From the IMG/VR virus record IMGVR_UViG_2859799533_000006: DNA of 34,130 nucleotides; one strand, 5' to 3'. This DNA is from a virus (taxonomy: Duplodnaviria; Heunggongvirae; Uroviricota; Caudoviricetes). This document shows positions 31,016 to 31,854 of this stretch, piece after piece; positions within the stretch are counted from its first letter, which is position 1, and each line of letters opens with the position of its first letter. The position numbers and the translations under genes are program-made. The notes under the pieces were generated by a model. That model searched no databases, was not told where the DNA came from, and worked only from the letters and a program-made list of their open reading frames with translations.

Positions 31016-31854
31016 GTGGTCACACTCTGCCAAGTGTTCGGGTTCATCGCAGCAGCTACAGATACTGGAAAAACCGTCCTGAAAAACCAGACGGCAGACG
31101 GGCTGTATTACGCAGTCAGGTACTTGAGCTACATGGCATCAGCCATGGTTCGGCCGGAGCAAGAAGCATCGCCACAATGGCAACCCGGAGAGGCTACCAG
31201 ATGGGACGCTGGCTTGCTGGCAGGCTCATGAAAGAGCTGGGGCTGGTCAGCTGTCAGCAGCCGACTCACCGGTATAAACGTGGTGGTCATGAACATGTTG
31301 CTATCCCTAACTACCTTGAAAGGCAGTTCGCCGTGACCGAGCCAAATCAGGTGTGGTGCGGTGATGTGACCTGTATCTGGACGGGTAAGCGCTGGGCGTA
31401 CCTCGCCGTTGTTCTCGACCTGTTCGCAAGAAAACCAGTGGGCTGGGCCATATCGTTCTCGCCGGACAGCAGGCTCACCATGAAAGCGCTGGAAATGGCA
31501 TGGGAAACCCGTGGTAAGCCCGGCGGGGTGATGTTCCACAGCGATCAGGGCAGTCATTATACGAGCAGGCAGTTCCGGCAGTTATTGTGGCGATACCAGA
31601 TCAGACAGAGTATGAGCCGGCGCGGAAACTGCTGGGATAACAGCCCAATGGAACGCTTCTTCAGGAGTCTGAAGAACGAATGGATGCCGGTGGTGGGTTA
31701 CGTAAGCTTCAGCGAGGCAGCTCACGCCATAACGGACTATATCGTTGGATATTACAGCGCACTAAGACCGCACGAATATAACGGTGGGTTACCCCCAAAC
31801 GAATCGGAAAATCGATACTGGAAAAACTCTAACTCGGTGGCCAGTTTTTGTTGA
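31016..31854 (+). pseudogene. IS911 transposase OrfB, frameshifted by a 1-nt change in the G-run at 31040..31042
   Basis: ORF 31016 starts MVTLCQVFG then goes out of frame; the catalytic part resumes in ORF 31177..31854 (...[25 protein letters not shown]...). The intact sequence recalled from memory (not verified) has one more G. Confidence 0.75.

Follow-up and report, generated by a model that had tools for sequence, protein, structure and literature searches.

The IS911 copy and its insertion site

The window (the whole stretch of 34,130 nucleotides analysed here) belongs to a lambdoid prophage and contains a copy of IS911, a member of the IS3 family, inserted in a phage gene (Table 1). In IS911 and other elements of this family, OrfAB binds the inverted repeats and catalyses transposition, which generates 3-bp target duplications. 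As read, the element starts with TGAAGTGG at the left and finishes with CCACTTCA at the right. Its inverted repeats are imperfect and carry the 5'-TG...CA-3' ends typical of the family, while orfA and orfB overlap, with orfB in relative frame -1 and the two joined at A AAA AAG. Nucleotide identity to annotated IS911 amounts to 99.7% over 1250 nt. An empty site was found in E. coli STEC2018-607, where the window flanks are joined by a single GGA and the ~170-aa phage gene is whole. The insertion is genuine and the element is structurally complete. It is also old and common to a Shigella lineage, as indicated by the 100-aa truncated product of the split phage gene, which is on record in 141 collection blocks.

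Table 1. Features of the IS911 locus, its twin and the homopolymer lesions of the prophage (window coordinates, except for the twin)
Feature	Position	Strand	Remarks
Q antiterminator frameshift, T6 vs T7	13533..13538	-	real, common to a subclade
dnaB frameshift, GGG vs GG	16111..16113	-	real, inherited
Initiator gene, private C3 vs C4 in all 10 sisters	18337..18339	-	resulting 179-aa fragment on record in CP026866.1 alone
Initiator gene, G5 tract vs G6 in SF-088	18357..18361	-	5, 6 or 7 long in other assemblies
Assembly-private deletion, G4 vs G5 in all 8 sisters (4 short-read)	29598..29601	+	3' remnant of the Ead/Ea22 gene
Phage gene, 5' part, split by IS911	30315..30614	+	resumes at 31866-32081; ~170 aa when rejoined
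Target-site duplication GGA, left copy	30612..30614		empty site in E. coli STEC2018-607 (L050)
IS911 copy (IS3 family)	30615..31862	+	1248 bp as written, 1249 bp when intact; 99.7% identity, full length, to RefSeq 'IS3-like element IS911 family transposase'
IRL	30615..30641	+	27 nt, 74% complementary to 31836-31862 (repeat search)
orfA, intact, 100 aa, HTH_Tnp_1	30687..30989	+	Shigella-lineage variant S98C; exact product in 153 collection blocks
A AAA AAG heptamer, programmed -1 frameshift joining orfA and orfB	30938..30944	+	from sequence; RefSeq 'programmed frameshift' at the same site
G3 run, point of the orfB frameshift	31040..31042	+	intact IS911, 5 orthologous copies and the same-genome twin all have G4
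Stranded 3' part of orfB, DDE/rve domain, in the original orfB frame	31177..31854	+	cut off by the missing G; Pfam rve 1e-31, rve_3
TGA closing the shifted 181-aa OrfAB	31229..31231	+	ORF 31016-31231
IRR	31836..31862	+	pairs with IRL 30615-30641 (repeat search)
Target-site duplication GGA, right copy	31863..31865		empty site in E. coli STEC2018-607 (L050)
Twin IS911 (L048)	CP026866.1, ~1297444-1298692		~590 kb away; own AGC target duplication

The first-pass annotation held that the orfB frame is lost at a run of three G, and the annotated intact copies, which have GGGG where the window has GGG, bear this out. Window positions 31037-31045 read ttcGGGttc, with the run lying exactly at 31040-31042. 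In a 1249-column alignment with two RefSeq copies taken as intact references, those of E. coli O121 (L001) and EC28 (L002), both annotated with a 'programmed frameshift', GGG against GGGG is the sole indel. Read through the slippery site as written, OrfAB is 181 aa long and HTH_Tnp_1 is its only Pfam domain match, whereas insertion of one G yields a 389-aa OrfAB with HTH_Tnp_1, HTH_21 and rve (rve 2.5e-31). The copy as written lacks a continuous OrfAB with HTH and DDE (rve) domains through this single base, which is probably an assembly error.

Several further variants were seen in IS911 at this and related loci. At window positions 30980 and 31375 the element has the OrfA change S98C and a change of GDVTYIW to GDVTCIW, the latter placing Cys for Tyr directly after the first catalytic Asp. 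Nearly all IS911 copies of the examined Shigella loci have this variant, which has evidently proliferated. In three sister genomes (L013, L016 and L018) the orthologous IS911 has an internal deletion of ~81-92 bp (window 31702-31782 missing), and the same three genomes have C4 in place of C5 at 31792. Together these changes form a real decay allele of the same IS911 insertion that the three genomes have in common.

Other insertion sequences lie in the window. Two copies of IS629 are found in the same orientation, at 23757-25066 and 28237-29544. The first lies inside an IS2-like element (121-aa OrfA and a truncated 209-aa OrfB at 25038-26035), which is intact in the sister genomes, and the second splits the Ead/Ea22 gene, an insertion seen in CP026866.1 only. 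In the insB region of IS1 (34028-34045) a 9-nt tandem unit, ACGGCTGGG, is duplicated, giving a product of 128 aa as against 125 aa in most sisters; records from other genomes contain the 128-aa form as well.

Inherited and private lesions of the prophage

Companion frameshifts were located against the intact prophage of E. coli SF-088 (L023). The same prophage was then taken from eleven other assemblies and every difference was tabulated; sister loci were retrieved by means of the dnaB fragment, RusA being too widespread to serve as an anchor. The frameshifts previously noted in dnaB, the initiator gene and Q do exist, as GGG vs GG, C3 vs C4 together with G5 vs G6, and T6 vs T7, respectively. 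Along with the IS911 case they had been read as one signature of homopolymer sequencing error. That part of the claim stands for the private IS911 G3 and initiator C3 and fails for dnaB and Q, which are real.

The frameshift in dnaB (+1) lengthens a 2-nt run. All sisters have it, the drafts AMKD01, AMJS01, AMKC01 and LPTS01 among them, and the resulting 292-aa fragment was found in 164 collection blocks, mostly contigs of 5-10 kb. The 166-aa Q fragment produced by T6 occurs in 10 blocks, Logan short-read assemblies among them (one Logan contig is present in at least 20 samples), and T6 is common to the window's closest subclade. Since both fragments recur in independent, mostly short-read, assemblies, they represent real inherited pseudogenes. 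It is scarcely credible, then, that all of the homopolymer frameshifts (dnaB, initiator, Q and IS911) belong to one artefact class and that the prophage genes are intact: every case does sit at a mononucleotide run, but the dnaB and Q lesions follow the sister phylogeny, and the proposal is refuted for both by independent assemblies. Each homopolymer frameshift in the window must therefore be judged separately. The view that the three in-frame stops, as substitutions, are less likely to be artefacts holds for the two that were located, one in DUF968, present in all sisters, and one in a methyltransferase (W to stop at 12194-96), common to the closest subclade. Both stops are real.

The initiator gene (ORF 17873-18860, minus strand) has two lesions of different character. 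Its poly-G tract at 18357-18361 reads as poly-C along the gene itself. Independent assemblies, short-read ones from Logan and ENA among them, show lengths of 5, 6 and 7, and the occurrence of all three in short-read data indicates that this stretch of a prophage replication gene varies naturally. With a length of 6 there is one ORF of 326-330 aa, with a length of 5 the gene is split into 245-249 and 76 aa, and with a length of 7 into 171 and 76 aa. An explanation of the G5 allele as PacBio homoplasy was dropped, because the C5 and C7 alleles are seen in short-read assemblies. The second lesion, C3 at 18337-18339, is private. So is a fifth frameshift case, missing from the list of the first-pass annotation: the G4 at 29598-29601, in an Ead/Ea22 remnant that is already split by IS629. 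At both of these positions the longer run is found in short-read sisters. We consider the IS911 G3, the initiator C3 and the G4 at 29598 to be probable artefacts.

Distribution of the G3 allele and of private deletions

Over 7816 nt the window is identical, with 0 mismatches, to the complete genome CP026866.1 (GCA_002949955.1; L014). The complete genomes CP049281, CP026762, CP026797, CP026867 and CP026795 have IS911 at identical junctions, and all five have G4, so that among the six orthologous copies G3 is private to CP026866.1. The first-pass annotation had proposed setting the run beside that of further IS911 copies of this assembly, and a twin (L048) provides this comparison: over the 1248 positions of the window copy the two are the same, and the sole difference is G4 in the twin where the window has G3. 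The suspicion of a homopolymer error thus holds for the IS911 run: unless it arose extremely recently, the window G3 is not real. A G-to-A change at 31452 of the window copy (M to I) is absent from the orthologues, and the 217-aa orfB product with this change occurs twice in the collection, both times in CP026866.1, once in the window copy and once in the twin. The near-identity of the two copies and their shared marker imply that one site recently received its sequence from the other, by transposition or gene conversion. Another assembly of the same strain was sought through the IS629-truncated Ead fragment, the 179-aa initiator fragment and the M-to-I orfB product, each of which was found solely in CP026866.1.

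The same G4-to-G3 change recurs in a few other places. One is a further Shigella copy, in PTES01 (L006). Another is plasmid CP027350.1 of E. coli O121:H19 2014C-3655, where the change is private to the assembly and is accompanied, 820 nt away and with no substitutions in between, by a second private deletion, C4 to C3. The corresponding stretch is 2 nt longer in at least seven sister plasmids; two of these, which were aligned, show G4 and C4 and no difference from each other. A citing paper lists 2014C-3655 among previously sequenced O121:H19 strains and has among its references Patel et al. 2018, with 77 STEC genomes sequenced by PacBio; Patel et al. 2018 is presumably the source of the 2014C-3655 assembly. 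Among species-representative genomes, 40 of 41 matches have G4, the one G3 being that of Pantoea dispersa DSM 30073, in an element that is a diverged relative of IS911, and its presence there means that the deletion can probably occur naturally. In 5426 complete E. coli genomes there were 2945 matching records; when the best place of each was ranked, the exact window allele gave 0 matches, and on the same basis only one of these records held a candidate of the same length.

Occurrence of G3 in four independent copies (the window, PTES01, the O121 plasmid and Pantoea) could be taken to mean that the G4 tract of orfB is a recurrent slippage hotspot of the contingency type, which switches the IS911 transposase off in independent copies. 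If that were so, slippage at G4 would yield non-autonomous copies making only OrfA. We regard this as very improbable, given how rare G3 is among both the species representatives and the E. coli records; moreover, three of the four cases lie in assemblies with clustered private G/C-run deletions, and a run of 4 nt is too short for meaningful phase variation.

Once IS repeats and misalignments at contig ends were left out of the count, the prophage yielded 11 assembly-private 1-bp indels, every one a deletion in a G/C run of 4-5. Four long-read assemblies account for them, with 5 in PTES01, 3 in the window, 2 in CP026867 and 1 in CP026797, and 0 private 1-bp indels were found in the short-read drafts AMKD01, AMJS01, AMKC01, LPTS01 and QWTX01 and two Logan runs. 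Runs of at least 4 in the compared region number 263 for A/T and 103 for G/C, and the probability that 11 of 11 deletions would fall in G/C runs by chance is ~1e-6. Two homopolymer differences are confirmed as real by independent assemblies, and both lie in A/T runs. For the CP026866.1 prophage the rate corresponds to ~3 private deletions per 25 kb. In long-read assemblies, the errors that persist are mainly indels in homopolymers, false deletions above all, with genes fragmented as a result (PMC12007338).

With regard to the origin of the assembly, CP026832, which lies in the same accession block as CP026866, is cited as PacBio data ('generated with PacBio sequencing') from the work of Kim et al. 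2018, and CP026866.1 presumably comes from the same PacBio batch. The papers searched contain no mention of CP026866 or its sister accessions.

PTES01 (GCA_002968185.1; L003-L007, L039) has its five private G/C-run deletions within 20 kb of prophage and looks like an error-rich long-read assembly. Many split housekeeping genes, apparently essential ones included, were observed in it as well, among them DNA_topoisoIV (590+267), argS (278+301), putP and mdoG. For CP026866.1, the comparison with E. coli UMNK88 covered 10 kb of the core chromosome next to the prophage. The sole 1-bp indel there is a C5-to-C4 change truncating yeeY (L106 16360), which, in a comparison with E. coli only, is compatible with either an error or a real pseudogene; tsuA/yeeE shows a deletion of ~98 bp relative to UMNK88.

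Origin of the missing base and comparison with known elements

On the strength of these sequence comparisons, we think it likely that the G absent from 31040-31042 was lost as a 1-bp consensus deletion in the presumably PacBio-only assembly CP026866.1 and not by mutation. This reading is favoured by the private status of G3 among the six orthologues, by a twin that is otherwise identical, by the confinement of ten like changes to long-read assemblies and by the recurrence of the change in assemblies with clustered deletions. A rough likelihood estimate, which sets the real indels expected in 1.25 kb since the origin of the twin against the observed rate of private deletions, favours error several-fold. 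The cause was presumably a sequencing or polishing error. The true DNA would then read GGGG, one G having been dropped in the assembly, and the copy would encode OrfA by normal translation and full OrfAB by -1 slippage at A AAA AAG, like its twin. If G3 is an artefact, the window copy would be an ordinary active IS911.

It is also conceivable, if rather unlikely, that G3 is a real and very recent 1-bp slippage deletion in this IS911 copy. The products would in that case be OrfA and an OrfAB stub of 181 aa that retains the HTH and leucine-zipper region and lacks the DDE domain, and the copy would be non-autonomous. Having lost the catalytic domain but kept both inverted repeats, it would depend for any movement on OrfAB supplied by the twin or by other copies. 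Such an event would not be out of place in a prophage that is truly decaying, with real frameshifts and stops, and in which IS copies themselves decay, as the internal deletion in three sisters illustrates; G-runs are natural slippage sites, and the Pantoea relative of IS911 has the same allele. The CP026866.1 strain also has real private substitutions, 7 in ~24.6 kb, and together with the M-to-I change in two IS copies these make a real private indel not implausible. Against this, the absence of any other difference from the twin in 1248 nt would require the event to be extremely recent, the change matches the 10 other private changes, all of them in long-read assemblies of the batch, in type, direction and base composition, and two other assemblies in which private G/C-run deletions cluster show it at this very position.

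Nothing new is present at this locus under either the artefact or the real-deletion reading: the element is IS911, and its frameshift comes down either to an error of assembly or to an ordinary IS pseudogene. Were G3 real, it would add one more decayed IS copy. The main value of the observation is as a quality flag, a warning of false pseudogenes in this batch of assemblies. Extrapolated genome-wide, the rate of private G/C-run deletions seen in the prophage would imply hundreds of false frameshifts in CP026866.1 and its batch-mates, and these would inflate the counts of pseudogenes and of "inactive IS" in studies of genome decay in Shigella.

Compared with known systems, the window copy resembles the IS911 of Shigella and E. 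coli (IS3 family, IS3 group) in its inverted repeats, 3-bp duplication, orfA and orfB, A AAA AAG heptamer and rve/DDE domain. It differs from intact IS911 in being one G short in the G4 run of orfB, by which both OrfAB and OrfB are truncated, and from annotated IS911 in the lineage variant S98C of OrfA, the Y-to-C change past the first catalytic Asp and the M-to-I change that it has in common with the twin alone. At the level of the prophage, the window is like other IS-rich, decaying lambdoid prophages of Shigella, with inherited lesions in dnaB, Q, DUF968 and the methyltransferase and insertions of IS911, IS629, an IS2-like element and IS1; the IS911 G3, in contrast, departs from the pattern of inheritance of such lesions. 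It agrees with the homopolymer deletion errors of long-read-only assemblies, known for producing false pseudogenes, in that single-base deletions in G/C runs are private to an assembly, break ORFs and are seen in none of the short-read assemblies. The bias towards G/C runs alone sets the present case apart from those known errors, being an empirical property of this dataset, and the case itself is built on comparisons of assemblies.
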